From Azolla caroliniana (lineage: Eukaryota > Plantae > Polypodiophyta), in the NCBI GenBank assembly GCA_043228905.1, contig JBHGNT010000007.1, positions 18,910,001-18,974,000 on the forward strand: 64,000 bases of DNA, given 5' to 3'. Positions within the stretch are counted from its first letter, which is position 1; the number at the start of each line of letters is the position of its first letter. The position numbers and the translations under genes are program-made. Of the stretch, positions 4,854 to 63,300 are shown in pieces. Under the pieces are notes generated by a model that was given only the letters and a program-made list of their open reading frames with translations, ran no database searches and was not told the DNA's origin.

Positions 4854-5568
4854 AGATCAATCATGGGACTAGTCCAAAACCATCCCCCTAGGTCCCACAT
4901 CAGCCTATTAACTGGTTGTCGTGCATATAACCAAAGCATATCCCACAAATGGGCTATTGACGGTTGTGGATCCAAGAGATTTCTTACTAGTTTTGGCAAT
5001 CACCCTAACTGGTACAACGAGTCGGTTTTGTAGCAAATTATCAGAGGGTGTATAAGGCTGCAATTTATTATCTTGTTGAATATGGAAATAAAAAATACAC
5101 CCATATGTAGAAATTCCTTTAACAAAGAGCATCATGCTATCATATAATGGCAAGACTCGAACCCATGACCTTGTGCTGCATGGGTCGAGCTCTTGACCAT
5201 TAGACCATACATTGTAATACATAAAATATTATTTTTATTTATATTTTATTATAGAAAATGGATGTATATTCTAGATTTCTCTAGAACATTCTAGAAACTT
5301 CAGGAGTACTCCTGAGAACACTATAAAAGGAGGCACAAGGCATTATTTCGAACCAAATCGGTTCAACGGCAGTCTTAAGCCTCCTAGCTACTATTGTATA
5401 CTCCACATAATATATATATTTTATCATCATTCTCTCACCCTTTCTCTCTCTCTCTATCTCTCTCGCTCGCTCGCTCTTTCCTTCTCTCGAGAGTTCTACA
5501 CCTCTCTTACTACTAATCCTCATCTTTTAGTACTAATTCCTCTCTGTCTTAGTACTGATCCTGACAGT

Positions 5569-6852: not shown

Positions 6853-6904
6853 GTTAAACGACTAAGTCCAGCCAAAATAGGAGTTGTTTGGTTGGACAAC
6901 CCTA
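6853..6904 (+). promoter_or_regulatory. Putative -1 ribosomal frameshift signal at the gag-pol junction
   Basis: G_TTA_AAC, a 6-nt spacer, then an 11-bp stem (6866-6876 with 6887-6897); pol lies in the -1 frame relative to gag. Confidence 0.7.
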
Positions 6905-8189: not shown

Positions 8190-11100
8190 GCAATGAAGAA
8201 ATGTTTCTCTTCGCAATATTAGTAAAGCCCTCAGACACCATTAAAGAGGAGTCCTCCGTTCAACTTCCAAAGAAGTATCCTCATTATGCCGATGTGTTTG
8301 ATAAAGTACAAGCCAATACGTTTCCTTCGTCTCGTTGTAGATTACCGTGGCTTGAATAAGGTTACAATCAGAAATAGGTATGCACTTCCCCTTATCTCAA
8401 GTCTTTTAGAACGGATCAATGGTGCCAGGTTCTTCACGAAGATCGACTTACAGGGAGCCAATAACCTTGTACGGATCCGACTAGGAGATGAATGGAAGAC
8501 TGCGTTTCGCACCAGATATGGGCAGTTCGAGTATATGGTCATGCCGTTCGGCCTCACTAATCCGCCATCAGTCTTCCAACACATGGCAAATGATATATTC
8601 CGAGATCTCTTGGATGTTTGCTTGATTATCTATTTGGATGATCTACTGGTTTATTCAAAGACCCAAGAAGAGCATGATTCTCATGTACTGTTAGTAGTAA
8701 AACGACTTCGAGAACATGGTCTTTATGCAAAGCTGGAAAAATGTAGTTTTGGGTGCAACTAGGTAGAATTTCTAGGTTATGTCATTTCCTCGGAAGGCAT
8801 CTCCATGGACCCTGCTAAGGTCAAAACTGTGGTAGAGTGGTAGACTCTGCGTTCGGTGCGAGATGTGCAATGCTTTTTAGGCTTTGCCAATTTTTACCGG
8901 AAGTTCATACAGGATTACTCAAAGCTCGTTCTGCCTCTCACACAACTTACCAGGAAGGGACAATCGTTCGTTTGGTCTAAAGAAGCAGACATGGCTTTTG
9001 AGAGTCTTAAAAAGGCATTTACATCGGCTCCAATTCTAGCTCATGTCGATCCGGAAAAACCATTTATTATTGAAGCCGACGCATCGGATTTCGCATTGGG
9101 GAGCATTCTGTCACAACGGGGTAGTGATGAGAAGTTACATCCTATAGCTTTTCACTCACGCAAGTTTGACACCACCGAAATCAACTACGAAATTCATGAT
9201 AAGGAGCTATTGGCAATAGTGGACTCTTTTACATAATGGATGCATTTTTTAGAGGGATCCTCTCATCAAGTCACCGTATTCAGTGACCACAAAAACCTTG
9301 GCTACTTTCAGGACGCTCGTGTGTTAAATCGACGTCAAGCTTGGTGGGCCCACTTCCTCACGCGTTTCGACTTCAAAATTACATATCGTTTGGGGAAGCA
9401 CCAAGGGAAGGCGGATGCATTATCACGGCGTTCGTACCTAGCACCGCGTCCCGGAGAGCTAGCTTTTGATAGCCAAAAGCAAGTAATCTTGGGACCAACA
9501 TGACTGCCAGCAACACAGGTCTTTGGCATGCCCATGGATTCCCACGTTATCGATACTATACGTGAGCACTTGAAGACCAATGCTTTCGCCCAAGCCATTC
9601 TAGCACAAATTGATCCCTCTAGAGCATCTTGTTCACATTCGCAACCACCAGGTACAGACTATCGGCAATTCAAATACCATGATGGATTACTATTCTTTAA
9701 TAAACTGTTGTATGTTCCTAATGGTTCTTGCTGCCTTCGAGTAGTCCAAAACTATCATGACACATATACAGCTGGGCATTTTGGTAGTACTAAAACATTA
9801 GATTTAGTAGAACGACCATTTTGGTGACCCCGTATGCGACAATTTTTCGAAGATTTTGTTCAGACTTGTGATACATGCTGTAGAGCGAAAATGCCAAGGC
9901 ATCATCCATATGGTTTATTAGAACCATTACCAATTCCATGCAAGCCGTGGCAATCCATTGCTCTAGACTTCATCACAGATCTTCTAGTCTCTAAGGGGTT
10001 TAATGCGATTCTAATAGTCGTAGATCGATATACGAAGATGGCTCATTTCTTGCCATGTACTAAGGAAATATCTAGTGAAGAAACCGCTGAAATTGTCATG
10101 CGTGAAGTATGTCGACATCATGGCCTTCCCGATAGTATCATTAGCGATTGTGGACCCCAGTTCGTATCGAAATTCTGGAAGCACCTTTTAAAAATGCTTA
10201 AGGTCACTTGTAACCTCTCCTCTGGCTACCATCCACAAAGTGATGGCCAAGCAGAACGAACAAATCAAACACTGGAGCAGTATCTTCGATGCTTTCTAAG
10301 CTATCATCAGGATGACTGGGCAGATATTCTTCACTTCGCCGAATTTGCCTACAATAACTCTGTCCACGCATCGACTAAAGTTACGCCATTTTATGCTTTT
10401 ATGGGTTCTCATCCCCAATGGTGTGTATTTGAAACCCTAGAGTTGTCCACAAATCCTTGCACAGAGGATCGTTTAGAGCAGTTACACAAGATACAAGCCT
10501 ATTTATCTACTCATCTCCAACAAGCTCAACAAACACACAAGGTTTACGCGGATCGTCATCGACTTCCATCCAGTTTTAACATTGGAGATCGGGTATGGCT
10601 ACTACGACGACACATCAAGACTACTCGCCCCTGTGAGAAGTTGGATTATTGGCGATTAGGTCCTTTCCGTGTTATAGGAAAGATTAATGATGTCACTTTT
10701 CGTCTCGATCTACCTCCGCAACTTCGGATACATCCGGTGTTTCATAGTTCTCTCCTCAAGCCCTATCAAGAGAGCACCATCCCAGGACGTATTACACAAC
10801 CTCCACCTCCGATCGAGCTTGAAGATGGACCTGAGTACGAGGTTGTCGCCATCCTTGATTCCAAGATTGTTCGTAACAAGCTCTACTATCTAGTCGATTG
10901 GCTAGGATATAGTCCCAGCGAGCGTAGTTGGGAACCGATAGAGAATGTGACCAATGGTCGTGCTCTTCTTGAAGACTTCCATCGTCAATATCCAAGCAAA
11001 CCGGGTCCTCAATCCAAAACGACTCGTGACACTCGTCATTTTAGAGGGGGGATAGTGTCATGATATGGCAAGACTCGAACCCATGACCTTATGGTGCATG

Positions 11101-13258
11101 GGTCAAGCTCTTGACCCTTAGACCATACATTGTAATACGTAGAATATTATTTTCATTTATATTTTATTATAGAAAATAGATGTATATTCTAGATTTCTTT
11201 GGAACATTCTAGAAACTTCAAGAGTACTCCTGAGAACACTATAAAAGGAGGCACAAGGCATTATTTCGAACCAAACGGTTCAACGCTAGTCTTAAGCCTC
11301 CAAGCTACTATTGTATACTCTCTTCACATAATATATATCTTTTATCATCGTTCTCTCAGCCTCTCTTTTTCTCTCTCTCTCTCTCTCTACAACCAAACCA
11401 CATATGCTCCTGTATTGGCTGAAGTTGCGTTGAGGCCTGAGAGAAGGCCATTGAAATATCCATTGTCATTGTCTTCGCCCCATATATTGAGTGTAACTGC
11501 TTAAGTCGATCCACTTCTTGCATCGGCTGAAAATGAATCCAAGATCCTACTGATGCTACTAGCCCATTGTCAAGTTTTCCCCATGCAAGATGAGGTCTAA
11601 GGCCTAATACATTTCTAATAGAATCCCGGACGAGAGAATTAGCCAAAAGCGGTTGATTCATCCAACCATCCCACGTGTTAGGCATCTCCTTGTGTAAAAA
11701 AATCTTGATTACATCCCATGCTCCAATGATTCCAAGTAGAAATCTATTGGATGTTAGATTCCATCTTGGTGTCTGTATATCTGTCAAGAACATCCATTTC
11801 AAAGAAGGCAACCCGTTTCCTCCCATCTTGGGAGATAATTGCATCAGTTGATTGAGCAACATACTCTTCCATGCCTTTGTCCCTGCAACAGTCATGTGAC
11901 TACAAACTTTGTCAAGAGAGCTCGAGATTGTATCAAGGGATCTATTAGAGCCAACCCTCCTTTACTTTTTGGCCTAATCAAAACATCCCATGCCACCTTG
12001 GCCAATACATGAGACCCATTTTTTCCACCCCAAAGGAAGTTACGTATGAGGCTTTGAACTTTCATGATTGCTGACCTAGAGAACAACCAAGCAGATGCGA
12101 TAAACCACATTGAGGCCAACAACACCGAATTTGCAATGACAACCCGACCTGCAAGGGATAACTGCTGCGAGTCCCAATATACCAATTTACGCTTAATTGA
12201 TAATAGTAATGGTGATAGCATCACTTCAGATGGTAAATCTATACCAACAAGACAGCCTAAGTAACGAATGGGCTCCCCATGATTTAGCCAACGGAATGTA
12301 GGGCGTGGATACCATTTTGGACGCGGTTCATCTCTGGCCCAACGGCCTACAGATTTATTCCAATTGAGAGAGGCTCCAGTAGCATCTGAAAATATTTATA
12401 AAGCATTATGTACCTGATCAAGATTAACAACATCTCTGCAAATATAAAGAGCAGTGTCATCCGCAAACTCAACATAAAAAACTATCGAGTTTGCAATAGG
12501 TAAGGCTATTGCTTGGATGGCCACCATTGAGGATCTAAGAAAAGATGATAGAGCTTCCCCAAATAAAATGAAAAGAAATGGTGCTAACGGAAAACCTTGT
12601 CGAACAGCTCTGGAAATTGGAAATAATGTACCATTGCCTCCAGAAAATAGAATTGAGCTAGAAGCATGTCTATATAAATCAGACACACCTTTTATTTGTT
12701 AATGGGTGGGGGGTTCTAGGCTTCACCCCCCTCCCAAGGGGGTTACGTGTGAGGGAAAGAGAGAAGTAAAGAAAAATAGAGAATGACACAAAAATGTGAG
12801 AGGGAAAAAAAGTCTTTTCATTACATGCCCATAAGGGGTTTATATATAATACATCTAATGTAACGGTTACATGACCATTATAAATAAGATCGTTACAAAT
12901 TCTTGTACACATGCACATAATTGTGCATGTGTCCATACACATTCTCATCCTTACACACTCATTTACTTTACACATACACATAAACCACATCATTACACCT
13001 ACCCTTATGCCTCCCCATATATTCTTATGGGTAACACATGGCACACCTATGGGACAGTGCATTGTCCGGTGAACCCACTCACCATGGCAACTCTTCTTGA
13101 TTGGAACTCCATCGGTCGTCTCAACGGTTGGAAATCCCTCAACCGGATCACTGCTCTAAGATCAATAACTTCGATTGGAGCTTTGATTGACTCGAACCTT
13201 CTCGTTTGGTCAGCACAAGTCACGATTGGAGTGGCTAAAATAAGGAATATTGGAGTGG

Positions 13259-26292: not shown

Positions 26293-26434
26293 TGTTATGA
26301 GTACATAAAATCATAGGAGGTTTAGGATGACTCAAACCCATAACCTTCTAAGAAAGAACACTTACCTTTAGCCATAAGGGTATACATGTTATACATAAAG
26401 ATATTTAATTTACTTTATTATAATATTGATAATG

Positions 26435-35754: not shown

Positions 35755-35792
<38 letters not shown>

Positions 35793-39680: not shown

Positions 39681-40936
39681 TTTTACCTAAAGAGAGTTTC
39701 AACAAATGGTTCTGAAAGATAGATAGATAGATAGATTCTATTATTGTCTTCAGAGGTCAAATATGACCTATGAGACAAAAAATATTACATTTCACGTGAT
39801 ACATGTGAAAGTTTAGACTCCTTTTATAATCTTGTGATTTTAGACAATTTCCAAAAACTTGATACACCAGTATCACATGTTTTAAATAGCATGTAAATTT
39901 TGCTAAATTTTTGAGATTTAACAAATTTCAAAATGATAATTTCTAAAATTGAATAGTTTAGGGATAAATGTTTAAATTTTGATGGTTTGCAGATATGAAA
40001 TGTAGTTAACTTAAAGAAAATCACAATTATGGTCAACTCAAGGCACAAGTTAAGATTAATGGTTTCACCATCTTGAGGAGATTAAGATTACATCTATTGT
40101 TAGACTTGAAAATGTTTTAAGTATAAAAGGTAATATTGCAATCCTTAATGTCATCATCTATAAATTAGTGCTCATTAACATCCATAAATTCACAACTCAA
40201 GAAATGTAGACAATATTCATAAACAATTTTGATAAATCCAGAACTCCTAAAATGTAAACAATATTCATAAACTGTCAAACTTTAGATGTGAACATTAATA
40301 TATCAACAATGTTACAATCTACAATGTTCAGGGTATCTACAATGTTACAATCTCCTTCCTTATAAGAATTCCCCTTCAAAATTTGTGAAGTAAATGGCAT
40401 TTGCAAAGTTCAATTACCATGAACACAATTATTAATGGTTTTCTTCTAATAAATGAAGCACATATTTACCATAAGGTATCTTGTTGTGCAACATACATCT
40501 TTAAAAAACCTCTTTTATTTGAAAAACAACAAGAGTTTTAAACATGAACACGATATGATGTATTGAAATAAAAAATAGAGTTTTCATCATAACTCTATAC
40601 AATATATTGAATTCATGTTCAAAGTTTTTATTACTAGATTGAAAAAATAATAATAATAAAAAATTAAGCTTGAGTTCATAGAAAAACCAGATTTCTCATC
40701 ACAAATCGATACAATGTATCGAGCTCATGTTTAAAGTAGTTTTTTCTAATTTTTAAAAAAACATTTTCAATTTGTTTCAAATTTTTAATTTTTTTTCAAA
40801 TTTTTTTCAATTTTATTTATTTATTTATATTTTTTATGGAAAAAATAATAATTTTAAACATGAACTCGATACATTGTATCGATTTGTGATAAAAAGTCTA
40901 GTTTTTTCATCACTTATTAAAGCTCAAAAAAAAATT

Positions 40937-41213
40937 CTAAGACAGAGACGAAATTAGTACTAAGACAGAAATATTAGTACTAAGAAGAATTTAAGGTGTA
41001 GAACACTTGAGAAAAGAAGAGAGTGAGAGAGAGAGAGGGACTGAGATGGAATGATGATGATAGCGATATACTGTGTGAGAAGAATATACAAGGAACGCTC
41101 GATATAGTAAAAATGAAAATATTATTTTATATATTACAATGTATGGTGTAATGGTCAAGAGCTTGACCCATGTAGCATATGGTCATGGGTTTGAGTCCTA
41201 CTATATCATGACA
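40937..41213 (-). mobile_element. Internally deleted family A solo LTR remnant
   Basis: TAGTACTAAG U5 repeats, GA microsatellite and the terminal ..ATATCATGACA. Confidence 0.8.
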
Positions 41214-42495
41214 TGAGCTAATCTAACTTTTTTACATGAACTTGATACGCCGTATCGAGTTCATGTTGAAAAGCTAACTTTTTTACAATCGAGTTCATGT
41301 TTAAAGTTTTATTTCGGATTTTTTTTTTAAAATAATTACATTTTTTTTTTTTTTTGGTATTTTTTTTTTTTTCTAAACAAAATTTAAGCTTTAATAAGTG
41401 ATGAAAATAATATTTTATGTATTACAATGTATGGTCTAATGTTCAAGAGCTCGACCCATGTAGCATAAGGTCATGGGTTTGAGTCCTACCATATCATGAC
41501 ATGAACTAAGCTAACTTTTTTAGCTAACTTTTTGACTTGAACTCGATACGGCGTATCGAGTTCATGTTTAAAGTTTTATTTCGGATTTTCTTTTAAAAAT
41601 AATTACATTTTTTCCTATTTTATTTTGGTATTTTGTTTTTTTTTCTAAAAAAAAAAAGTTTTAATAAATGATGAAAAAATTATTTTATGTAATGCAATGT
41701 ATGGTCTAATGGTCAAGAGCTTCACCCATGTAGCATAAGGTCATGGGTTCGAGTCCTACCATATCATGACATGAACTAAGTTTTATTTCGGATTTTTTAA
41801 AAAAATAATTACTTTTTTTCCTATTTTATTTTGGTATTTTGTTTTTCTTTCTAAAAAAACATTAAGCTTTAATAAGTGATGAAAACAATGTATGGTCTAA
41901 TGGTCCAGAGCTCGACCCATGTAGCATAAGGTCATGGGTTCGAGTCCTACCATATCATGACATGAACTAAGCTAACTCTTTTACATGAACTCGATACGGC
42001 GTATCGAGTTCATGTTCTTGAAAAGCTAACTTTTTGACATGAACTCGATACGGCGTATCGAGTTCATGTCTAAAGTTTTATTTCGGATTTTTTTTATTTA
42101 AATAATTACATTTTTTCCTATTTATTTTGGTATTTTGTTTTTTTTTCTAAAAAATATTAAGGTTTAATAAGTGATGAAAAAATTATTTTATGTATTACAA
42201 TGTATGGTCTAATGGTCAAGAGCTCGACCCATGTAGCATAATGTCATGGGTTCTAATCCTACCATATCATGACATGAACTAAGCTAACTTTTTTACATGA
42301 ACTCGATAAGGCGTATCGAGTTCATGTATAAAGTTAGCTTTTTGACATGAACTCGATAAGGCGTATCGAGTTCATGTATAAAGTTTTATTTCGGATTTTT
42401 TTAAAAAAATAATTACATTTTTTTCTATTTTATTTTGGTTTTGGTATTTTGTTTATTTTTCTAAAACAAAATTGAGCTTTAATAAGTGATGAAAA
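41110..42495 (+). repeat. Five-unit tandem array of tRNA-like LTR terminus, palindromes and T-rich spacer
   Basis: Cassettes at 41144-41213, 41432-41501, 41702-41771, 41893-41962 and 42205-42274 (spacings 288, 270, 191, 312); palindromes at about 41234, 41537, 41983, 42036, 42294 and 42345. Confidence 0.92.
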
Positions 42496-44049
42496 AACCA
42501 GAGTTTTTATCACAAGTCGATACAGTGTATCAAATTGATGTTTAAAAAATAAAACAAAATCAATAAAAGTTTTAAAAAAATTGAAAAAAATTAGAAAAAA
42601 TTACTTTAAGCATGACCTCAATACATTATATCAAATTGTGATGAAAATTATGGTTTTCTAGATGAACTCAAGCACAATTTATTATTATTATTATTTTTTA
42701 AATCCAGTAAAAAAAACTTTGAGCAAGAATTCAATACATTGTATAGAATTATGATGAAAACTCTATTTTTTACATCAACTCGATACAACATATCGAGTTA
42801 ATGTTTAAAATCTTGTTGTTTTTCAAATAAAAAAGGTTTTTTAAACATGAACTTGATTCGTACTAAAATGTTTGTTTTAACAAGATAACAAGATGCATAT
42901 AGATAGTGCAAAAAAGTATGTTGTACAACAAGATACTTTATGGTGAACGTGTGCATCATTGATTAACAAAAAACTATTAATAATTGTGTTGATGGTAATT
43001 GAACCTTGCAATGCCATTTACATGGTCCATAAAGTGTTTGCGTGGTTCTTAATCACTACTTAATGTTAATCTTTATAGTTGGAACAAAGGATGACAACAC
43101 AAGCATAACTCAGATGACAAGGAAACTTGCAAGAACTCAAGATGGGGATATTAATAGCTACACATGTAGATGGCCATGACCTAGGGTACCAATTCTGCAT
43201 TGGTAAAGTTTTGGACGTGATGATGTATTAAACCTTTGTAATACATCTATCATTGACATTAATGAGGTGGATATCATTATGTATGACTTTACATAGACAA
43301 AAGTTGGATGTTTAAGGACAACAACGATATGCATAATAAAAGAGATATTAGCAAGTCTAGAAGATATCTCAGATTGAAGGCGAAGAAGATTTATTGCACA
43401 AAATTTAGAGATACCATTTGGTGAAGACAATGATTTGATTGGTACATTAGAAGATGAGGAGGAAGAGTCACAATTGTATATTATCTATAGTAGTGATTCT
43501 CATGAAAATAATGATGATAGTCATGCAAATAACTCCCAAATGTATTTGTTGTGCAACTATATGTAACAAATTTAGACAACATTTTATCGAATGGAATAAA
43601 AACGTTCATTGTTTTGAAATATTCTACTTTGATTTCTTTAAGATCTAAAAACTTATTAGTTGTCATTTTTCTTTAAAAATCCACAAAGTTACTTTTCATA
43701 TTTTACCCAAATTTGGCATTTTTTAATTTTACCAAATGGTGAAATTTTCAATTTCTTCATCAAGTTTTGGAGAACATGTGATACTAGTATCAAGATGTTT
43801 TGTGAAATGGCAAAACAAACCTCAAAATCAAACGGAATATTCCTTATCCTTCCACTTGTGAACGCAAACGTGTTTTTTGTAGTTAGGTGCAATATGTGTA
43901 GTATAATGTGTGAAGTGTGAGCCTTCACATTTGTCCCATGTCATGGTACATTGGCATTGAAAAAATGCCTCATTTATAGAGAAATATAGTGACGCATCAT
44001 GAAGCAAGTATCCTGCATCCTATCTACGAAACCATTGTTACATATCTTG

Positions 44050-45450: not shown

Positions 45451-48400
45451 TGATAACAAAAGATATATATATTATGTTAAGAGAATATACAATAGTAGCT
45501 AGGAGGCTTAAGATTGGCGTTGAACCGATTTGGTTCGAAATAATGCCTTGTGCCTCCTATTATAGTGTTCTTAGGAGTACTCCTGAAGCTTCTAGAATGT
45601 TCCAGAGAAATCTGGAATATATATCACTTTTCTATAGTAAAAATTAAATGAAAATAATACCTTTGTATTACAATATATAGCCTAATGATAAGAGCTTGAC
45701 CCATGTAACATAAGGTCATGGGTTCGAGTCCTGCCATATCATGACACTATCTCCCTTTTAAAACGACAAGTGTCACGAGTTGTTTTGTACTGAGGACCCG
45801 ATTTGTCTGGATATTGACGATGGAAGACTTCAAGAAGAGCACGAGCATTGGTCACATTCTCTATTGGTTCCCAAGTACGCTCGTTGGGACTATATCCTAG
45901 CCAATAGACTAAATAGTAGAGCTTGTTGCAAACAATCTTGGAATAGAGGATAGCGGCAACCCCATGCTCAGGTCCATCTTCAAGTTCGATTGGGGGTGGA
46001 GGTTGTTTAATACAACCTAGGATGGTGCTCTCTTGATAGGGTTCGAGGAGAGAATTATGATACACCGGATGTATCCGAAATTGTGGAGGTAGATTGAGAT
46101 GAAAAGCGACATCATTAATTTTTCTGATAATACGGAAAGGACCTCATCGCCGATAATCCAACTTCTCACATGGGCGAGTAGTCTTGATGTGTTGTCGAAG
46201 TAGCCATACCCGATCTCCAATTTTAAAACTGGCTGGAAGCCGATGATGATCCACATAAACCTTGTGTGTTTGTTGAACTTGTTGTAGATGAGTAGATAAA
46301 TCCGCTTGTATCTCGCGTAACCGCTCTAAACGATCCTCTACGCAAGGATTTCTGGGTAACTCTAGGGTTTCAAATACACACCACTGGGGGTGACAGCCCA
46401 TATAAGCATAAAATGGTGTAACCTTTATCGATGAGTGGACAGAGTTATTATACGCAAAATCGGCGAAGTCGAAAATATTTGCCCAGTCATCTTGATGATA
46501 GATTAGAAAGCACCGAGGATACTACTCCAACATTTGATTTGTTCGTTCTGCTTAGCCGTCTGTTTGTGGGTAGTAGCCGGAGCAGAGGCTACAAGTGACC
46601 TTGAGCATTTTAAAGAGGTGCTTCCAGAATTTCGAGACGAACTGGGGTCCCAGTCACTAACGATACTATTGGGAAGGCCATGATGCTGACATACTTCAGG
46701 CATGACAGTTTGGGCGGTTTCCTCACTAGAGATTTGCTTAGTACATGGCAGAAAATGGGCCTCCTTCGTATATCGATCTACTAATGTTAAGATTGTTGGG
46801 AAATCGGTCCCTTTGGATGGAATCCGGTTATGAATAAAGAGGGCCCAGTGAGAACTGGAAGAGATCCGGAAACCGGATCGGATAGGCCCGATGAGAACCG
46901 GAAGAGATCTGGAAACCGGATCGGATGGACCTGGTGAGAACCGGAAGAGAAGACATACTTGTAAATGTGTTGACTAAGCCTATTGAGGCTATATTTGTAA
47001 ATAGCCCTAAGTTGATATAAGTATAAATATGACTTAGGGCAATCACTTTATGGTGTGGTGTTTGTTGTCATATTGTTGTATGTGTATAACTGTTGTACAG
47101 ACAGAGAGTGAGAGAGTAGCTACAAGCACTTTCTTTTGTAACCGCCGTCTGGCGAAGATACAGAGCACGAGGTCGTTGCCTCTGTGCCTCTACTTTGTAT
47201 TTCCTCTCATATAGTGATAGTTGGAGTCCGTGGGCTCCCGTGGTTTTTCCCTATTAGGGTTTTCCACGTAAATATTCTATGTACTCTCTAATTCCCATTT
47301 CTGTGATTCAAGAGTCGGTTGTGGCCGAGCAATATTCCGCGTTATTCTTTACAAAGATTGCATCGAATCCCTTAGAGACCGGAAGATCTGTGATGAAATC
47401 TAGAGCAATGGATTGCCACGGCTTGCTTGGAATTGGTAATGGTTCTAATAAACCATATAGATGATGCCTTGCATTTTTGTTCTGCAACATGTATCACAAG
47501 TCCGAACAAAATCTTCGACAAATTGTCGCATATGGACCACTAGAATGATCATTGTACTAAATCTAATGTTTTAGTACTACCAAAATGCCTAGTTGTATAT
47601 GTGTCATGATAGTTTTGGACTATTCGAAGGCGACAAGAACCATTAGGAACGTACAAGAGTTTCTTAAAGAATAGTAATCCAGTATGACATTCGAATTGTC
47701 GATAATCTGTACCTGGTTGTTGCGACTGTGAACAAGATGCTCGAGAGGGATCAATTTGTGCTAGAATGGCTTGGGCGAAAGCATTTATCTTCAAGTCCTC
47801 ACGTTTGGTATCGATAACATGGGAATCCAAGGGCATTCCGAAGAGCTGCATTGCTTGTAGTCGTGCTGGTCCTAGGATTAATTGTTTTTGGTCATCGAAA
47901 GTTGGCTCATGAGGACGCGGTGATAGATACGAGCATCGTGATAATGCATCTGCCTTCCCTTGTTGCTTCCCTGAACGATATGTAATTATGAAGTCGAAAC
48001 AAGTAAGGAATTGGGCCCATCGAGCTTGAGGCCAATTTAACACACGAGCATTCTGAAAGTAGGCAAGGTTTTTGTGATCATTGAATACAGTGACTTGATG
48101 AGAAGATCCCTCTAGAAAATGCCTCCATTGCGTAAAAGAGTCCACTATTGCTAATAGCTCATTATCATCAATTTCATTATTTTGACCTTAGCCGGATCCA
48201 TGGAGATGCCTTCCGAGGAAATGACATAGCCTAGAAATTCTACCTGGTTGCACTCAAAACTACATTTTTCCAGCTTTGCATAAAGACCATGTAAGTCATT
48301 TTAGTACTAACAATACATGAGAATCATGCTCTTCTTGGGTCTTCGAATAAACCAGTAGATCATCCAAATAGATGATCAAACAAACATCCAAGAGATCTCG

Positions 48401-51241
48401 GAATATATCATTTGCCATGTGCTAGAAGACTATTGGCGCATTCGTGAGATCGAATGGCATGATCGTATACTCGAAGTGCCCATATCTAGTGCGAAACACG
48501 ATCTTCCATTCATCTCCTGGTCGAATCTGTACGAGTTTATATGCTCCTCGTAAGTCGATCTTTGTGAAGAACCTTGCGCCATTGATCCGTTCTAAAAGAC
48601 TTGAGATAAGGGGAAGTGCATACCTATTCCTGATGGTGACCTTATTCAAGCCACGGTAATGTACAATGAGACGAATTGATCCATCCTTTTTCTTGACGAA
48701 GAAAATGGGTGCGCCGGCTGGAGATTTCGAATGTCGAATGAAACCATTTGCCAAATTTTCCTCTATATAGGCTCGAAGCACTTCTAGCTCGGTTGGTGAA
48801 AAATTGTAGATTGGTCCCCATGGTGGCTCTTTTCCTGGTTGTAAATCGTTGGGGCAATCATACGGTCATTGGTGAGGAAGCGTATTGGCTTGTACTTTAT
48901 CCAATACATCAGCATAATGACGATACTTCACTGGAAGTTGAACGGTGGACTCCTCTTTAGTGGTGTTGGAGGGTTTTCTTGCTACCACGAAGAGAAACAT
49001 TTCTTCCTTGCGTCCTTCCTCACGCAATTGATGTAACGAAATGGTTGCAATCTTCTGAGTAGATCCTCGGGCTTGTCGATACCGGATTTCTCTTGTTCTC
49101 CAATCTATGTCTGGGTTATGTAATTCGAACCATGGTAATCCCAAAACGATGGGATGTTCTAAGATACGAATTATATTAAAGGATACTATACACACTAAAT
49201 TATCTAGGACAATATTAATGGGTTCTGACTCTTCTATGATATTTTCGGAAGCAATGGGACAACCATCAATGACTATTATAGAGGCAGGACACGAGAGTTT
49301 TCTTAGGGATATTTGATGAGCTTGGGCAAAATTCATATCCATGAAGCAAGAATTAGCTCTGGAATCTAGGAGTGTTGAGACATGTATCGGAGAGGTACTT
49401 TTAGTACTAACGGTTACTTGGGCTAGGAACACATTGCTAACTTGCTTAGAGGGAATGGAACTACTAATGGGCTGCACAGATCTAGGGCTGTCCAACCAAA
49501 TGGCTCCTATTTTGGCTAAACTTAATCGTTTAACTCTTATTCTAATTGACTAAGGACATCAAATTTGTTCGATAAATTTCGGCTATTAGTACTATTAGGA
49601 CTATCATATATTCCTAATGAATAGACTCGGGTTTAGTACAATCAGAACTAGCAACTATTTGGTTCACCTGTCTTATTGGCCTATGGGGACAGTTCACTGC
49701 AATATGCCTTGGTCCACCGCAATAAAGACATAGTCGATTTGCTCGACGTCGCTGCTTTTTTTCTTTCGATAATGGTCCGCGACGACGTGTAGTGTTAATT
49801 TCCATCAGAGTTGGAGTATTCACTGGAGACACATTATATGACTCCCTTGGAAAAGATTTTGCTACCACTGAGGCATATGTGGGCTCTGATCTTGCCCTTG
49901 GCATCTGGAACTGTCATTCCGAACGTCGTTCGAAAACACACTTGTTGCATCTCACCACGCAACTGATTGCTTCTGTCAATGACCTTGGTTCTTCAGAGAA
50001 GGTCAAGAGTAAATCCTTGACAGCGTTACGTAGACCATAACGAAATTGCTCCGTAAGTGCTTGGTCATCCCAGGGGATATCGGACGCGAGTAGGCAGAAA
50101 TCTGCAGCGTATATGGAGACTGGACAATCACCTTGATGTAATTGTCGGATTTTGTTTATTGTTGTCCTTATGCTGTCAGTATATCCAAAACAGGCTTTAA
50201 ACTCACTTAAAAACTCTTCAAAATTGTTTAGTAAAGGAGATTCCTTTTCTAACAACGGAGTGAACAATGGAAAAGTTGAGCCACTTAACAACGTGCCTAC
50301 TAAACCCACTCGTGATGCATCGGTGGGGTATCGGGAAGGATGCATTTGATGGACTAGTCGTACGTGATTAAGGAATCCTCTAAACTACGATCATGTTTCA
50401 TCGAATTTCATGGGAAGGTCGATCTTGGGTTCCTTATGAACCCCTTGCGTACTGGGTCCTTGTGGTTGCTTGGAGCTGTTGCACGTGTAACGCTAGTTCC
50501 CCATGTTGTTGTTGCGTCTACTGCTTCTCTAAGGAGATTTGTTGAATCTCCCCCAACAGTCGTTGATTTTCTTGTTCCAATGCGAGAAACTTCTCTTTCA
50601 AGCATTGGAACTCCGAAAAAACGGATTGATATTCTTGAGCGCTAACAGTGGCCATAGAATGAGGGAAAAGAGGAATAAGAGATTAGTATGAAGGGAGGGA
50701 GAAGTAAGAAGATAAAGGAAGAGAAGGAAGGAGACGAAATTGGTTCAAACTATTAGGAGCAATACTAAGACAGAGAAGTACTATCAGGAACAATACTAAG
50801 AAAGAGAAGGAATTAGTACTAAAAGATGAGGATTAGTACTAAAGAAGGTGTAGAACTCTAGAGAGAAGGAAAGAGAGAGAGAGAGAGAGTGTGTGTGTGT
50901 GTGTGTGTGAGTGAGTGAGTGAGAGAGAGAGAGAGAGAGAGAATGATGATAACAAAAAATATATATTATGTTAAGAGAGTATGCAATAGTAGCTAGGAGG
51001 CTTAAGACTGACGTTGAACCGATTTGGTTCGAAATAATGCCTTGTGCCTCCTTTTATAGTGTTCTCAGGAGTACTCTTGAAGCTTCTAGAATGTTCTAGA
51101 GAAATTTGGAGTATATATCAATTTTCTATAGTAAAACTTAAATGAAAATAATATCTTTTGTATTACAATATATAGCTTAATGGTAAGAGCTTGACTCATG
51201 TAACATAAGTTTATGGGTTTGAGTCTTGCCATATCATGACA
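45287..51241 (-). mobile_element. Chromovirus family A copy 2, degraded
   Basis: LTRs 45287-45746 and 50751-51241; gag, PR, RT, partial RH, IN and chromodomain remnants; no TSD, and the upstream LTR is itself preceded by a PPT. Confidence 0.9.
46794..47353 (+). mobile_element. Solo LTR, family S-related copy 4, with about 2.3 x 43-bp repeats
   Basis: TGTTG..TTACA ends, TSD AAGAT/AAGAT; shares GGCTATATTTGTAAATAGCC, TATAAAT and GGGTTTTCCACG. Confidence 0.88.
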
Positions 51242-53372: not shown

Positions 53373-53467
53373 TGTCAGGATCAGTACTAAGACAAAGAAG
53401 GAATTAGTACTAAAAGATGAGGATTATTACTAAGAGAGGTGTAGAACTCTCGAGAGAAAGAATGAGT

Positions 53468-53507
<40 letters not shown>

Positions 53508-56500
53508 GTGAGAGAATGATGATAAAAGATATATATTATGTGAAGAGAGTATACAATAGTAGCTAGGAGGCTTAAGACTGGCGTTGAACCGATTTGGTTT
53601 GAAATAATGCCGTGTGCCTCCTTTTATAGTGCTCTCAGGAGTACTCTTGAAGTTTCTAGAATGTTCCAGAGAAATCCAGAATATACATCCATTTTCTATA
53701 ATAAAACATAAATGAAAATAATTTTTTACGTATTACAATGTATGGTCTAATGGTCAAGAGCTCGACCCATGCAACAAAAGGTCATGGGTTTGAGTCTTGC
53801 CATATCATGACACTATCTCCCCTTTAAAACGACGAGTGTCACTTGTCGTTTTGGATTGAGGACCCGGTTTGCCTGGATATTGACGATGGAAGTCTTCAAG
53901 AAGAGCACGAGCGTTGGTCACATTCTCTATCGGTTCTCAAGTAAGCTCACTGGGACTATATCCTAGCCAATCGACTAGATAGTAGAGCTTGTTGCGAACA
54001 ATCTTGGAATCAAGGATGGTGGCAACCTCGTACGCAGGTCCATCTTCAAGCTCGATCGGAGGTGGAGGTTGTGTAATACGTCCTGGGATGGTGCTCTCTT
54101 GATAGGGTTCAAGGAGAGAACTATGAAACACTGGATGTATCCGAAGTTGCGGAGGTAGATCGAGACCAAAAGCGACATCATTAATCTTTCCTATAATACA
54201 GAAAGGACCTAATCGCCGATAATCCAACTTCTCGCAGGGGCGAGTAGTCTTGATGTGTCGTCGTAGTAGTCATACCTGATCTCCAATGTTAAAACCGGAT
54301 GGAAGTCGATGACGATCCGCATAAACCTTGTGTGTTTGTTGAGCTTGTTGGAGATGAGTAGATAAATCGGCTTGTATCTTGCGTAACCGCTCTGAACAAT
54401 CCTCTGTGCAAGGATTTGTGGACAACTCTGGGGTTTCAAATACACACCACCGAGGGTGAGAACCCGTATAAGCATAAAATGGCGTGACTTTAGTCAATGC
54501 GTGGACAGAGTTATTGTAGCCAAATTCGGCGAAGTGAAGAATATCTGCCTAATTATCCTGATGATAGCTTAGAAAGCACCGAAGATACTGCTCCAGCGTT
54601 TGATTTGTTCGTTCTTCTTGGCCATCACTTTGTGGATGGTAGCCGGAGGAGAGGTTACAAGTGACCTTGAGCATTTTAAAAAGGTGCTTCCAGAATTTTG
54701 ATATGAACTGGGGTCCACAGTCGCTGATGATACTATTGGGAAAGCCATGATGTTGACATACTTCACGCATGACAATTTCAGCGGTTTCTTCACTAGATAT
54801 TTCCTTAGTACATGGCAAGAAATGAGCCATCTTCGTATATCGATCTACGACTGTTAGAATCGGATTGAATCCCTTAGAGACTGGAAGATCTGTGATGAAG
54901 TCTAGAGCAATGGATTGCCATGACTTGCTTGGAATTGGTAATGGTTCTAATAAACCATATGGATGATGCCGATAGTCTGTACCTGGTGGTTGCGACTATG
55001 AACAAGATGCTTGAGAGGGATCAATTTGTGCCAGAATCGCTTGGGTGAAAGCATCCGTCTTCAAGTCCTCACGTATAGTATCGATAACGTGGGAATCCAT
55101 GGGCATGCCAAAGACCTATGTTGCTTGCAGTCGTGTCAGTCCCAAGATTACTTGCTTTTGGTTATCAAAAGTTGGCTCACCGGGATGTGGTGCTAGGTAT
55201 GAATGCCGTGATAATGCCTCCGCCTTCCCTTTGTGCTTCCCCGAACGATGTGTAATTTTGAAGTCGAAACGCGTGAGGAAGTGGGCCCACCGAGCTTGAC
55301 GTTGATTTAACACACGAGCGTCCTGAAAGTAGCCAAGGTTTTTGTGGTCACTGAATACGGTGACTTGATGAGAGGATCCCTCTAAAAAATGCCTCCATTG
55401 TGTAAAAGAGTCCACTATTGCCAATAGATCCTTATCATGAATTTCATAGTTGATTTTGGCGGCGTCAAACTTGTATGAGTGAAAAGCCACAAGATGTAGC
55501 TTCTCATCATGACCTCGTTGTGACAGAATGCTCCCCAATGCGTTTGCTTCGATAATGAATGGTTTTTCTGGATCAACATGAGCTAGAATTGGAGCCGATG
55601 TAAATGCCTTTTTAAGACTCTCGAAACCCATGTCCGCTTCTTTAGACCAAACGAACGATTGTCCCTTCCTGGTAAGCTGTGTGAGAGGCAGAACGACCTT
55701 TCAGTAATCCTGTATGAACTTCCGGTAAAAATTGGCAAAGCCTAAAAAGCATTGCACATCTCGCACCGAACGTGGAGTCTGCCACTCTACCACAGTTTTG
55801 ACCTTAGCTGGGTCCATAGAGATGCCTTCCGAGGAAATGACATAGCCCAATAATTCTACCTAGTTGCACCCAAAACTAGACTTTTCCAGCTTTACATAAA
55901 GACCATGTTCTCGAAGTCGTTTTAGTACTAATAGTACATGAGAATCATGCTCTTCTTGGGTTTTTGAATAAACCAATAGATCATCCAAATAGATGATCAA
56001 ATAAACATCCAAGAGATCTCGGAATATATCATTTTCCATGTTTTGGAAGACTGCTAGCGCATTAGTGAGGCCGAACGGCATGACCGTATACTTGAAGTGC
56101 CCATATCTGGTGTGAAATGCGGTCTTCCATTCATCTCCTAGTCGGATCTGTACGAGATATAGGCTCCCCGTAAGTCGATCTTCGTGAAGAACCTGGCACC
56201 ATTGATCCGTTCTAAAAGACTTGAGATAAGGGGAAGTGCATACCTATTTCTGATTGTAACCTTATTCAAGCCACGGTAATCTACAACGAGACGAAGTGAT
56301 CCATCCTTTTCTTCACGAAGAAAATGGGTGCGCCCGCTGGAGATTTCGAATGCCAAATGAAACCATTTTCCAAATTCTCCTCTATATAGGCTCACAAGAC
56401 TTTTAGCTCGGTTGGTTACAAATTGTAGATCGGTCCCCATGGTGGCTCTTTCCCCGGAAGTCAATCGATGGGGCAATCATACGGTCGATGGTGAGGAAGC

Positions 56501-58510
56501 GTATTGGCTTGTACTTTATCGAACACATCGGCATAATGATGATACTTCTTTGGAAGTTGAACGGTGGACTCCTCTTTAATGCTGCCTGAGGGCTTTACTG
56601 ATATTGCGAAGAGAAACATTTCTTCCTTGTGTCCTTCTCGCAACTAATGTAGTGAAATGGTTGCAATCTCATGAGTAGACCCTCAGGCTTTTCGATACCG
56701 GATTTCTCTTGTTCTCCAATCTATGGCTAATTATGTAATTCGAACCATGGTAATCCTAAAACAATGGGGTGTTCTGGGATGCTAATTACATTAAATGATA
56801 CTACACATGCTAAATTATCTAGGACAATATTAACGGTCTCGGACTCTTCTATGATATTTCCGGAAGGAATGGGATGACCATCAATGACTACTACAGAGGC
56901 TGGACACGGGAGTTTTCTGAGTGATATCTGATGAGCTTGGGCAAAGTTCCTATCCATGAAGCAAGAATTAGCTCTGAAATCTAGAAGTGCTAAGACATGT
57001 ACTAGAGGGGTACTTTTAGTACTAACTGTTACTTGGGCTACGAACACATTGCTAACTTGCTTAGAGGGAATGGAACCACTAATGGGCTGCACAGTTCTAG
57101 GGTTGTCCAACCAAACGGCTCCTATTTTGGCTAGACATAGTCATTTAACTCTTCTTCTAACTGACTAAGGACATCAAATTTGTTCGCTAGATTTGGGCTA
57201 TTGGTACTATTAGGACTATTAGATATCCCTAATGAAATAGACTCAAGTTTAGTACAATCAGAACTAGCAACTATTTGGTTTACCTGCCTTCCTGGTCTAT
57301 GGGGACAATTTACCGCGATATGCCCTGGTCCACCGCAATAAAGACATAGTCGGTTTGCTCGGTGTCGTTGCTTTTCTTCTTCCGATAGCGGTCCACGACG
57401 ACATGTGGTGTTAATTTCCATCGGAGTTGGAGTACTTACTTGAGGTGCATTATATGACTCCCTCAGAAAAGATTTCGCTACCACTGAGGCGTAGGTAGGC
57501 TCAGATCTTGCCCTTGGCATCTGGAACTGTCGTTTCGAACGTCATTCAAAGACGCGATTGTCGCATCTCCTTTGCGGCTAATTGCTTCTGTTAATGACTT
57601 TGGTTCTTCGGGAAACGTCAAGAGTAAATCTTTGACATACCAAAATTGCTCCATTAATGCTTGATCATCCCAGGAGATATCAGAGGCGAGTAGACCAAAA
57701 TCTGCAGCGTATGTGGAGGCTGGACGATCGCCTTGACGTAGTCGTTGGATTTTGTTGATTGTTGTCCTTATGCTGTCAGTATCTCCAAAACAGGCTTTAA
57801 ACTCACTTATAAATTCTTCAAAATTGTTTAGTATTGGAGATTCTTTTTATAACAGCGGAACAAACCATGCCAACGTTGAACCACTTAACAATGTGCCTAC
57901 TAAACCCACTCGCGATGCATCGGTGGGATATTGGGAAGGATGCATTTGAATAACTAGTCGTACCTAATTAAGGAACCCTCTAAACTGTGATCGCGTTCCA
58001 TCGAATTTCATGGGAAGGCTGATCTTGGGTTCTTTTTGAATCCCTTGTGTTCCAGGTCCTTGTTGTTGCATCGCTACGATGGTTGCTTTGAGTTGTTGCA
58101 CACGTAATGTCAGCTCCCCATGTTGTTGTTGTTTTTCCTGCGCTATTTGTTGATGATCCCCCAACAAAAGGTGATTTTCTTGTTCTAGTGCTACAAATTT
58201 CTCCTTTAAGCATTGGAGCTCTAGGAAAATAGATTGGTTATCCTAAGCGCTAACAATTTCCATTTTACTAGGGAGGATAAGAGGATTAGTATGAAAGGGG
58301 TAGGAAGATGTGGGAAACCGAAAAGAAGACCAGAAAAAGAGGATATATAAGAAGATAAAAGGAAGAGGAGGAAAAGAGGAGACGGAAGGAGGATGTACCG
58401 AAATCGGTTCAAACTGTCAGGATAGGTACTAAGACAGAGAAGGAATTAGTACTAAAAGATGAGGATTAGTACTAAGAGAGGTGTAGAACTCTCGAGAGAA
58501 GGAAAGAGCG

Positions 58511-58545
<35 letters not shown>

Positions 58546-58850
58546 GTGAGAGAATGATGATAAAAGATATATATAATGTGAAGAGAGTATACAATAGTAG
58601 CTAAGAAGCTTAAGACTGGCATTGAACCGATTTGGTTCGAAATAATGCCTTGTGCCTCCTTTTATAGTGTTCTTAGGAGTACTCCTGAAGTTTCTAGAAT
58701 GTTCCAAAGAAATCTAGAATATACCTCCATTTTCTATAATAAAACATAAATGAAAATAATATTCTACGTATTACAATGTATGGTCTAATGGTCAAGAGCT
58801 CGACCCATGCAGCAAAAGGTCATGGGTTCGAGTCTTGCCATATCATGACA
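53373..58850 (-). mobile_element. Chromovirus family A copy 3, both LTRs intact, coding region decayed
   Basis: LTRs 53373-53812 and 58415-58850, perfect TSD GATGG, self-priming PBS 58401-58412, PPT, all domains including the chromodomain as fragments. Confidence 0.95.
58781..58850 (+). promoter_or_regulatory. tRNA-like Pol III A-box/B-box cassette at the U3 terminus of the family A LTR, antisense to the element
   Basis: TGGTCTAATGG (58781-58791) and GGTTCGAGTCT (58825-58835), offset 44 nt, with AAGGTC variable-loop-like bases before the T-arm; present in every family A LTR. Confidence 0.65.
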
Positions 58851-59958: not shown

Positions 59959-60267
59959 TGTCATAACTAGACTCGAACCCATAACCTTTTGTTACACGGG
60001 TCGAGACTTTACCATTAGGTTATGAGTTGTAATTTGAAGGATATTATTTTCATTTAGGTTTTATTAGGAAATTGATGTATATTCCAGATTTCTCTGGAAC
60101 ATTCTAGAAACTTCAGGAGTATTCCTGAAGACACTATAAAAGGAGGCGCAAGGCATTAGTTCGAACCAAATCGGTTCAACGCCAGTCTTAAGCCTTCTAA
60201 CTACTGTTGTATATCTTCCGTCATATAATACATATATCTTTTGCATCATCATTCTCTCTCTCTCTCT

Positions 60268-60318
<51 letters not shown>

Positions 60319-63300
60319 ACTCATTCCTTCTCTCAAAGTTCGACACCTCTCATAGTACTAATCCTTCTCTGTCTTAGTACTATTCCCCAACAATAGTACT
60401 AATCCTTCTTTTAGTACTAATTCCTTCTCTGCCTTAATAGAGTTCCTGACAGTTTGAACCGATTTTCCTCCTACTAGTCTCCCTCTTCCTTCTGTCTCTC
60501 TCCTTTCCTACTAGTCTCTTATTTCCCTTTTCCTTCATCCCATGGCCACCGTTAGCGCTGAAGAGTATCAATCCGTTTTCTCGGAATTTCAATGCTTGAA
60601 AGAGAAGTTTCATGCTTTGGAACAAGAAAATCAACGCTTGTTGGGGGATCTTCAGCAAATTTCCTTAGAAAAGCAGCAAACGCAACAACAGCATGGGGAA
60701 CTTGCGTTACGCGTGCAACAACTCGAAGCAACCATCGTAGCAATGCAACAACAAGGGCACGGAGCACAAGGGATTCATAAAGAACCCAAGATTGGCCTTC
60801 CCACGAAGTTCGATGGAACGCGATCGCAGTTTAGAGGGTTTCTTAACCAGGTACGGTTAGTTATTCAAATGCATCCGTCCCGATATCCCACCGATGCATC
60901 ATGAGTGGGTTTAGTAGGCACGTTGTTAACTGGCTCAGCATTAGCATGGTTCGCACCGCTACTAGAAAAGGAATCTCCAGTACTAAATAATTTTGAAGAA
61001 TTCATAAGTGAGTTTAAAGCATGTTTTGGAGATACTGACAGCATAAGGACTGCAATCAACAAAATCCGGCGATTACGCCAAGGTGACCGTCCAGCCTCCG
61101 CATATGCTGCAGATTTCCGCCTACTCGCCGCCGATATCCCCTGGGATGATCAAGCATTGATGGAGCAGTTCCGCTATGGTCTACGCAACGATGTCAAGGA
61201 TTTACTCTTGACTTTCCCTGAAGAGCCAAAATCATTAACAGAAGCAATCAGTCGAGCGGTCAGATGTGACAACCGCCTCTTCGAGCGACGTTCGGAACGA
61301 CAATTTCAGATGCCGAGGGCAAGATCCGAGCCTACCTATGCCTCAATGGTAGCGAAACCTTTTCAAAGGGAGTCACATAATGCGCCTCCAGTAAGTACTC
61401 CAACTCCAATGGAAATTGACACTACACGTCGTCGTGGGCCGCTATCGGAGGAGGAAAAGCAACGACGCCGAACAAACCGATTATGCCTTTATTGCGGTGG
61501 ACCAGGGCATATCGCGATAAACTGTCCCCATAGACCAAGAAGGCAGGTAAACCAAGTCATTGTTAGTTCTGACTATACTAAACCCGAGTCTATGTCAGTA
61601 GGAATCTCTGATAATCCTCATAGTCATAATAGTCCTAATAGTACTAATAGTCCGAATCTCGCAAACAAATTTGATGTCCTTAGCCAATTAGAAGAAGAGT
61701 TAAACGACTAAGTCCAGCCAAAATAGGAGCCGTTTGGTTGGACAGCCCTAGATCTGTGCAGCCCATTAGTGGTTCCATTCCCTCTAAGCAAGTTAGTGAT
61801 GTGTTCGTAGTCCAAGTAGCAGTTAGTACTAAAAGTACCCCTCCAGTACATACCTTAGCCCTTCTAGATTCCGGAGCTAATTCTTGCTTCATGGATAGGA
61901 ATTTTGCCCGAGCTCATCAGATATCTCTAAGAAAGCTCCCATGTCCAGCCTCAGTAGTAGTCATTGATGGTCGTCCCATTGCTTCTGGTGATATCATAGA
62001 AGAGTCGGAACCCGTTAATATTGTCCTGGATAACTTAACATGTGTAGTATCATTTAATATTATTAGTATTCCAGAACATCCCATAGTTTTAGGATTACCA
62101 TGGTTCGAGTTACATGACCCAGACATAGATTGGAGGACAAGGGAAATCCGGTTGCGACAAACCCAAGGATCTACCCAGAAGGTTGCAACCATTTCGCTAC
62201 GTCAGTTGCGTGAGGAAGGGCGCAAGGAGGAAATGTTTCTCTTTGCAATATCAGTACAACCCTCCAGCACCACCAAAGAGGAGTCCACCGTTCAACTTCC
62301 CGAGAAGTATCGTCAGTATGCTGATGTGTTCGATAAAGTACAAGCCAACACACTTCCTCATCATCGGCCGTACGACTGCGCCATCGACTTACAACCGGGA
62401 AAAGAGCCGCCATGGGGGCCGATCTACAATTTGTCACCAACCGAGCTAGAAGTCCTTCGAGCCTATATAGAGGAGAATTTGGAGAACGGTTTCATTCGGC
62501 ATTCGAAATCTCCAGCCGGCGCACCCATTTTCTTCGTCAAGAAAAAAGATGGCTCGCTTCGACTCGTTGTAGATTACCGTGGCTTGAATAAGGTCACAGT
62601 AAGAAATAGGTATGCTCTTCCCCTTATCTCAAGTCTTTTAGAACGGATCAACGGTGCCAGGTTCTTCACGAAGATCGACTTACGAGGAGCCTATAACCTC
62701 GTACGGATCCGACCAGGAGATGAATGGAAGACCGCGTTTCGCACCAGATATGGGCACTTCGAGTATACGGTCATGCCGTTCGGACTCACTAATGCGCCGG
62801 CAGTCTTCCAGCACATGGCGAATGATATATTTCGAGACCTCTTGGATGATTTTTTGATCATCTATTTGGATGATCTACTGGTTTATTCAAAGACCCAAGA
62901 AGAACATGATTCTCATGTACTATTAGTACTAAAACGACTTCGAGAACATGGTCTGTATGCAAAGTTAGAGAAATGTAGTTTCGGGTGCAACCAAGTGGAG
63001 TTTCTCGGCTATGTCATCTCCTCAGAAGGCATATCTATGGACCCAGCCAAGGTCAAAACGGTGATAGAATGGCACACTCCGCGTTCGGTGCGGGATGTGC
63101 AATGCTTCCTAGGCTTTGCAAATTTCTACCGGAAGTTCATACAAAATTACATATCGTCCGGGGAAGCACCAAGGGAAGGCAGATGCATTATCACGGTGTT
63201 CGTATCTAACACCACGTCCCGGTGAGCCAGCTTTCGATAACCAGAAGCAAGTAATCTTGGGTCCAGCACGACTGCAAGCAGCACAGATCTTTGACATGCC

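Follow-up and report, generated by a model that had tools for sequence, protein, structure and literature searches.

An antisense tRNA-like cassette with conserved A and B boxes at the LTR edge of Tcn1-like chromoviruses, a candidate TFIIIC-binding element

Results

A self-priming chromovirus in a stack of retrotransposons

The window, by which we mean the whole 64-kb stretch of DNA that was analysed, is a stack of retrotransposons, and a search of its full length with ARAGORN gave no tRNA gene. The chromovirus that is the subject of this study lies on the minus strand, is about 5.5 kb long, codes for gag-pol, carries a tRNA-like cassette at the edge of its LTR, and is flanked by a 5-bp target duplication, GATGG (Table 1). 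Its pol has the Ty3/gypsy order of reverse transcriptase (RT), RNase H, and integrase, and the gag-pol region of this copy is interrupted by stops and frameshifts. The chromodomain, taken from a family A copy at 9828-11063, matches the Pfam Chromo model with an E value of 1.5e-14, and the aromatic cage residues Y, W, and Y are seen in its translation. The chromovirus is also found in leaf and plant metagenomes.

The original prediction for this DNA had included a frameshift signal and self-priming; self-priming and a -1 overlap of gag and pol are both present. The start of pol lies in the -1 frame and overlaps the end of gag. The primer-binding site is complementary to a 12-nt self-primer at the predicted transcript start, not to the end of a tRNA, and the two sites change in step in family A and in three metagenome loci, L008, L009, and L010. 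A TATA motif precedes the self-primer by 31-33 nt in all five LTRs with a readable primer site. Self-priming is not a novelty, as the Tf1-type mechanism has already been predicted for most Tcn1 elements, according to the available text of Neumann et al. 2019 (PMC6317226).

Two smaller features of the coding region may be mentioned here. At the likely frameshift site, the gag stop comes soon after a G-TTA-AAC-like heptamer, with pol in the -1 frame. A perfect 8-bp inverted repeat at 53824-53853 lies within the end of the integrase coding sequence, just ahead of the polypurine tract, and is by eye partly present in L008 and L009.

Table 1. Positions of the chromovirus features and of the cassette copies in the window
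Feature	Position	Strand	Remarks
5' LTR	58415..58850	-	436 bp, TG..CA ends
3' LTR	53373..53812	-	93.6% identity with 5' LTR
Polypurine tract	53813..53828	-	
gag and pol	53829..58250	-	protease, RT, RNase H, integrase, chromodomain; boundaries approximate
Likely frameshift site	window 6850-6865, 61695-61711; L008:547-553, L009:5653-5659		L008 heptamer is a variant
Primer-binding site	58401..58412	-	complementary to self-primer
Self-primer, 12 nt	58622..58633	-	at predicted transcript start
TATA-like box of LTR Pol II promoter	58658..58667	-	about 115 bp inside the A box, facing away
A-box-like motif (tRNA positions 8-19)	58781..58791	+	10.5 bits; antisense to element
AAGGT, variable-loop-like motif	58816..58820	+	invariant in A, B, L008, L009; outside classical boxes
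B-box-like motif (tRNA positions 52-62)	58825..58835	+	16.2 bits
Imperfect 20-bp hairpin	58788..58841	.	family A group only
Cassette of 3' LTR	53743-53796	+	T at C56; B box damaged (TTTGAG)
TTTT, possible Pol III stop for transcript from 3' LTR	53849..53852	+	in integrase coding end
Cassette, family A 5' LTR	5154..5207	-	26.7 bits
Cassette, family A 3' LTR	11072..11125	-	26.7 bits
Cassette, subfamily A' LTR	45678..45730	+	25.6 bits
Cassette, subfamily A' LTR	51173..51225	+	23.5 bits
Cassette, subfamily A'' LTR	59970..60022	-	25.8 bits
Decayed cassette, family B 5' LTR (starts 26293, +)	26329..26382	-	10.2 bits, 7/1000 shuffles
Five more cassette copies	41144..42258	+	deleted solo LTR and four tandem LTR-head copies

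An outward-facing pair of tRNA boxes

As the element lies on the minus strand, the cassette is antisense to it and points out of the 5' LTR. The plus strand reads TGGTCTAATGG from 58781, followed by AAGGTC at 58816 and by GGTTCGAGTC at 58825, the latter 44 nt past the first T of the A-box motif, which is also the commonest spacing among real tRNA genes (156 of 349). The cassette foreseen by the original prediction, with its A box, AAGGTC, B box, and 44-nt spacing, is thus present. As an A/B-box pair, 58781-58834 scores 26.7 bits on matrices made from phage and bacterial tRNA genes rather than plant ones (349 of 378 unique genes called by ARAGORN in 128 phage loci, isotype-balanced, after 29 without a parsable box had been dropped). 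Real tRNA genes scored with the same matrices have a median of 28.8 bits and a lower quartile of 23.1 bits. When the first 130 LTR bases were dinucleotide-shuffled 1000 times, 26.7 bits was never reached, nor was it in any of 20,000 hairpin-preserving shuffles, the control that had been suggested together with the prediction. Shuffled 64-kb windows contained 0.2 positions at 21 bits or above.

In sequence, then, the A and B boxes at tRNA spacing correspond to a Pol III type 2 promoter, and a cloverleaf with an anticodon arm is not found. No tRNA was called on the window cassette by ARAGORN, or by Rfam at E values up to 10, because an inverted copy of the T-arm region takes the place of the anticodon arm. 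All four family A LTRs in the window carry the cassette (20.6-26.7 bits), as had been claimed for every one of them, but the B box of the 3' LTR copy is damaged. Three LTRs of the sister subfamilies A' and A'' and one deleted solo LTR bear it as well, again at 20.6-26.7 bits.

The cassette in related elements

An integrase alignment search returned 79 metagenome loci from 3 of 64 collection parts, two of these loci belonging to the same clade. These two, L008 (69% identity) and L009 (62%), are the closest by integrase among the 79, and in both of them U3 opens with an antisense cassette, of 23.6 and 22.6 bits, respectively, with none of 1000 shuffles scoring as high in either case. The L009 cassette aligns over the whole Rfam tRNA model with 15.8 bits, the gathering score being 29. 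The cassette stands at the same place, on the same strand, and with the same spacing in four coding lineages, A, L008, L009, and B, the last a distant family of the window with a decayed copy. It is absent from the U3 head of L010, a self-priming relative with 52% integrase identity, and from 23 other U3 heads (median 2.8, maximum 16.8 bits); these 24 were picked by a readable polypurine-tract junction. When the 800 nt past integrase were scanned in 84 of 95 loci (11 were too short), at least 21 bits was reached by L008 and L009 and by none of the 82 more distant loci. Three others, L047, L063, and L084, have scores of 18.6-20.7 bits, far from the integrase end and near the chance rate.

In a quick, midpoint-rooted tree built from RNase H and integrase with all 60 rows kept, one 23-row clade (SH-aLRT value 99) unites A, A', B, L008, and L009, and both main branches of this clade include cassette bearers; 17 of its rows, like the nearest sister rows, are represented by protein only, and the cassette was read in the four coding lineages. 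Gene order, chromodomain, and self-priming mark this clade as Tcn1-like, the tree itself holding no named Tcn1 sequence. Searches for more LTRs of the clade gave only distant relatives, phage tRNAs, or nothing in viral contigs, and only 22 loci, at identities of 49% or less, in prokaryote assemblies.

Box letters and spacing are conserved

At four-fold-degenerate pol sites the four lineages A, B, L008, and L009 have identities of 0.28-0.43, where 0.28 is expected at saturation. Against this background, we scored ten canonical promoter bases, T8, A14, G18, G19, G53, T54, T55, C56, A58, and C61, in what we take to be their tRNA position numbers. Eight of the ten are invariant across the four lineages versus one of 17 inter-box bases (Fisher p 1.7e-4), and without the decayed B copy, which accounts for both misses, all ten are. 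The preferential conservation of the boxes that had been proposed as a check on the prediction is therefore seen. T8, G18, and G19 are unchanged in all four lineages, and G53, T54, T55, A58, and C61 in all eight rows of the alignment. Pairwise identity across lineages is 0.62 in the A box and 0.75 in the B box versus 0.26-0.32 between them, and the distance from T8 to G53 is 44-45 in each of the 13 sequences checked. The middle of U3 differs in length, from about 105 to 190 bases, and a clear alignment of it is obtained for A and L008 only.

C56 falls in a fast-mutating CpG and is T in 5 of 12 matched window copies, while A, L008, and L009 have C. G10 has been lost in B, L008, A'', and some subfamilies that show up as loose ends. 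Invariance extends to AAGGT and A15-T16, which are not classical box letters, and AAGGT is as conserved as the boxes.

A similar picture comes from four DNA runs of related organisms, with 836-2286 contigs in each. Among the best 40 of 41 variants, all of them at least 32 bases from the ends of the stretch, with the B box at its edge, there was none of 4% or more at T8, A15, T16, G18, G19, or T20; at the free positions 9 and 12, by contrast, variants reach 59%. Those at A14 amount to 4-5% in two of the four runs, and 10 of the 18 bases just upstream vary. Taken together, the comparison of sequences gives solid evolutionary evidence for selection on the boxes across the four lineages. In all four DNA runs the contig depth over 58816-58833 exceeded that of the LTR bases on either side by a factor of about 1.5-2, so this segment is likely shared by other repeat families.

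Hairpin, stems, and terminators are not conserved

The prediction had described a stem of about 22 bp formed by the same bases. A hairpin is indeed present, with a folding z of -4.3 (-3.7 on the sense strand), but we count 20 base pairs; its left arm is the inverted copy of the T-arm region that stands in the place of the anticodon arm. From 17 to 20 of the 20 pairs are kept in A, A', A'', and the array copy, compared with 10 in B, 12 in L008, and 9 in L009, with C also within 9-12; the folding z values are -0.2 in B, -1.0 in L008, and +0.1 in L009. The hairpin is therefore limited to the family A group and is not supported as a part of the system originally conceived. Within that group, A, A', A'', and the array copy all retain the 11 inner pairs, with silent sites that are only about 75% alike, and changes on both sides of the stem are not above shuffles (110/500). 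The long hairpin is likely a later addition in the family A group, made by inverted duplication of the T-arm region, and it may serve a second function that is specific to family A.

A conserved tRNA fold is likewise not supported, since T-stem pairing was equalled by 99 of 500 shuffles, the acceptor stem has 2-6 of 7 pairs, and the tRNA stems do not covary. As the stems are not kept, a DNA motif fits the data better than a folded RNA. The run of four T that had been placed near 53848 exists and starts at 53849. The first such run past the B box comes at 53 nt in A (3' LTR), 26 nt in A', 19 nt in B, and 13 nt in L009, and L008 has none within about 130 nt, so the defined antisense RNA across the polypurine tract that had been suggested is not upheld. 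With neither hairpin nor stems nor T4 conserved, there is no shared hairpin RNA, tRNA fold, or transcript of fixed length. Three poly(A) RNA runs of a related organism placed 25, 24, and 35 reads on 53520-55000, in both orientations and without any pile-up of read starts; these reads say nothing on short Pol III RNA, which poly(A) selection would lose.

Discussion

Box letters and spacing are kept in this clade while stems, middle, and terminator are free, which is the pattern expected of a TFIIIC site kept as DNA. We propose that the cassette may be a DNA element next to the Pol II promoter that binds TFIIIC and is under selection, and that purifying selection would act on the box letters and their spacing throughout this self-priming, Tcn1-like clade; we consider this joint reading about evenly balanced between right and wrong. 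It would begin with a single capture into U3, in the founder of the clade, of a tRNA gene or a tRNA-headed SINE, after which normal replication would have spread the cassette to both LTRs. Host TFIIIC would bind the cassette as DNA at the outer LTR edge, in the first 100 bases of U3, and TFIIIB could sit on the AT-rich stretch just upstream of the cassette, back to back with the Pol II TATA box. TFIIIC so bound would keep the LTR promoter open or block silencing that spreads in from the flank, and any Pol III RNA from the cassette would be a by-product.

TFIIIC is known for barrier activity in fission yeast and mammals; our literature search for a plant TFIIIC barrier returned nothing relevant. 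An element with a chromodomain predicted to direct it into heterochromatin would profit from such a barrier. One may even picture a self-insulating retrotransposon, a clade of heterochromatin-homing chromoviruses with their own TFIIIC-bound tRNA-gene barrier at each LTR edge, which is a possible but tentative extension of the proposal. If it were true, each new copy would protect its own Pol II promoter against silencing, and the host genome would be strewn with portable boundary elements in their thousands. If TFIIIC binds, mutating the boxes would also be a simple way to ask whether tRNA-gene boxes form chromatin barriers in plants, and elements that target heterochromatin would have a means of remaining active. 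The promoter letters selected here belong to a protein-coding plant retrotransposon, which they can serve neither in making its genomic RNA nor as its primer.

Some of the conservation goes beyond what TFIIIC would require. TFIIIC needs a box spacing less tightly fixed than that seen in this cassette, and AAGGT, A15-T16, and the tight spacing would fit pairing with a real tRNA equally well. In that case the U3 start of the genomic RNA would pair with the D loop and the variable and T loops of a host tRNA, and the docked tRNA would help to bridge the RNA ends, to dimerise, or to package, as in Ty3 or Drosophila gypsy. Docking calls for antisense orientation and a U3 position, both of which are present (available parts of PMC5371799 and PMC1635307), and the AAGGT beside the T loop and the ATGG in the D loop are invariant. 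However, the element primes itself, with a 12-nt site that co-changes with its partner in four lineages, so there is no tRNA tied to the 5' end to form the bridge. Furthermore, the four bases that separate AAGGT from the B box are not the same in all lineages (pairwise identity 0.50), so that a duplex with a single tRNA is interrupted there, and the family A hairpin would hide the site on the sense strand. We regard docking, the foremost of the alternatives, as rather unlikely; if a tRNA does dock, a self-priming element would have retained tRNA contact for a step other than priming.

The cassette could also be a true Pol III gene, whose short antisense RNA would tune the expression or replication of the element itself, crossing the polypurine tract from the 3' LTR or running into the flank. 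Its boxes are of full strength, a T4 follows the B box by 53 nt in the 3' LTR context and lies inside the LTR in L009 and B, family A has a stable hairpin, and foamy viruses, in the available text of PMC3993851, set a precedent with Pol III hairpin RNAs from U3. We nevertheless think a Pol III gene improbable, as no terminator occurs at a shared place, with none at all within about 130 nt in L008, as B, L008, and L009 lack the hairpin, and as the stems show no covariation.

Still less favoured by the data is a neutral passenger, a tRNA or SINE relic that only seems conserved through recent swaps of LTR heads or repeated captures from different tRNAs. tRNAs captured separately would also share a fixed spacing and differ in their anticodon arms, the cloverleaf frame of L009 is nearly complete and its T-stem letters are its own, the window has many tRNA-headed repeats (e.g., the SINE at 19549), and, in the available part of Kojima's paper (PMC10886601), 'not a few' Repbase LTRs have tRNA-like pieces. 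Yet the cassette occupies the same place and strand in one clade, a recent swap would have carried along the inter-box letters, which are at chance identity, and variants within the family spare the key A-box letters. The window SINE is no closer than many unrelated tRNAs, 49 of 378 scoring as well for family A, and was dropped as a specific donor for that reason. We hold a passenger to be quite unlikely. Finally, that the hairpin is what matters, for example beside the polypurine tract in plus-strand priming, with the box likeness incidental, is very improbable and as a clade-wide explanation largely refuted: the intact inner 11 pairs in the family A group favour it, but no hairpin-preserving shuffle reached the box score, the boxes occur without the hairpin in B, L008, and L009, and both-side changes do not exceed shuffles.

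With the candidate TFIIIC site as the preferred reading, it is instructive to compare the element with known systems, as described in the available parts of the papers cited. The closest comparison is with the Tcn1 chromoviruses of non-seed plants, in the Tf1/Sushi group (PMC6317226; Novikova et al. 2010, PMC2864245). Tcn1 and the present clade have in common the Gypsy gene order, an aromatic-cage chromodomain, an LTR of about 440 bp, and self-priming without a tRNA primer site. The Tcn1 descriptions, as far as the available text of these two papers goes, mention no tRNA-like LTR segment, and the self-priming relative L010 also differs from this clade in lacking the cassette.

Helenus (TRIMp3), Cassandra, and Ajax are short, code for no protein, and have tRNA primer sites, and their Pol III promoter has been proposed to transcribe the element (Kojima 2024, PMC10886601, in the part available). 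As in Helenus, the tRNA-like LTR sequence described here is conserved at boxes A and B. Unlike Helenus, this is a 5.5-kb element with gag-pol and not a short non-coding TRIM, and it has a self-complementary site in place of a tRNA primer-binding site. In contrast to all three, it keeps a Pol II TATA box, and its cassette faces outwards and therefore cannot make the genomic RNA. The same text argues that autonomous partners must use Pol II, and, of the Repbase LTRs with tRNA-like pieces, it studies the TRIMs only; the LTR hits that it leaves unexamined may include cases such as ours.

Two further systems come close in other respects. Foamy viruses have Pol III miRNA genes in U3 (Kincaid et al. 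2014, PMC3993851, available text), and share with this element an autonomous LTR retroelement with A and B boxes and hairpins in U3. Their product is a hairpin RNA with its own terminator, whereas neither hairpin nor terminator is conserved in this element, and its cassette, unlike theirs, is a recognisable tRNA scaffold at the LTR edge. The primer site of Ty3 is bipartite with its 3' part in U3 (PMC5371799), and Drosophila gypsy has a 3' tRNA site (PMC1635307); from the accessible portions of these papers, both resemble this element in that a stretch close to the 3' end of their genomic RNA, for Ty3 within U3, is complementary to a tRNA in its T and D arms. Both prime from that tRNA, whereas the present element has no tRNA primer site, and self-priming removes the usual reason for tRNA contact. 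Small-RNA promoters in LTRs have been described in non-coding TRIMs, with a proposed role in transcribing the element, and in a few vertebrate retroviruses, with miRNAs as their products. A search of the open-access literature turned up no autonomous plant chromovirus in which an antisense tRNA promoter is reported to be conserved. TFIIIC likely binds here, to judge from the box letters, and if the binding is real, its use by protein-coding plant LTR elements would be a new use of that factor.

Further cassette copies and repeats in the window

Five of the cassette copies lie within an AT-rich fold-back element at 40390-43021, which has inverted arms of about 110 and 400 bp that are 75-86% alike. 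A solo LTR in it, 40937-41213, has kept the cassette and lost the TATA box and self-primer, and is followed by four tandem units of 190-310 bp, each with an LTR head. Four of the five copies, which score up to 29.5 bits, have a run of 4-6 T about 26-33 nt past the B box, and therefore look like complete Pol III units. An LTR-like non-coding stretch at 37194-37762, on the minus strand, also begins with an antisense cassette (37695-37748; 18.3 bits, 0/1000 shuffles); by eye, its middle resembles the U3 of L009, so that it is possibly a fifth lineage.

The tRNA-headed SINE, at 19538-19728 on the plus strand, is about 190 bp long, has an A tail, a 16-bp target duplication, and a box score of 29.4, and is inserted inside another LTR element. 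Neither ARAGORN nor Rfam calls a tRNA in its head, and it has 12 bases before the B box in common with the LTR cassette. A short repeat-rich element with tandem units of 25, 40, and 54 bp occurs at 7380-8190, 17386-18014, 35322-35774, and 46790-47360, inserted in three chromovirus copies and one copia copy. The window also contains two young copia copies, at 831-4854 and 28290-32326, with LTRs 97-99% alike and a mutual identity of 95%, the second of which sits inserted in family B. The best named relatives of a copia protein in the window, a weak hint that the host is a fern, come from the fern Adiantum nelumboides, with 36-54% identity over parts of its length.
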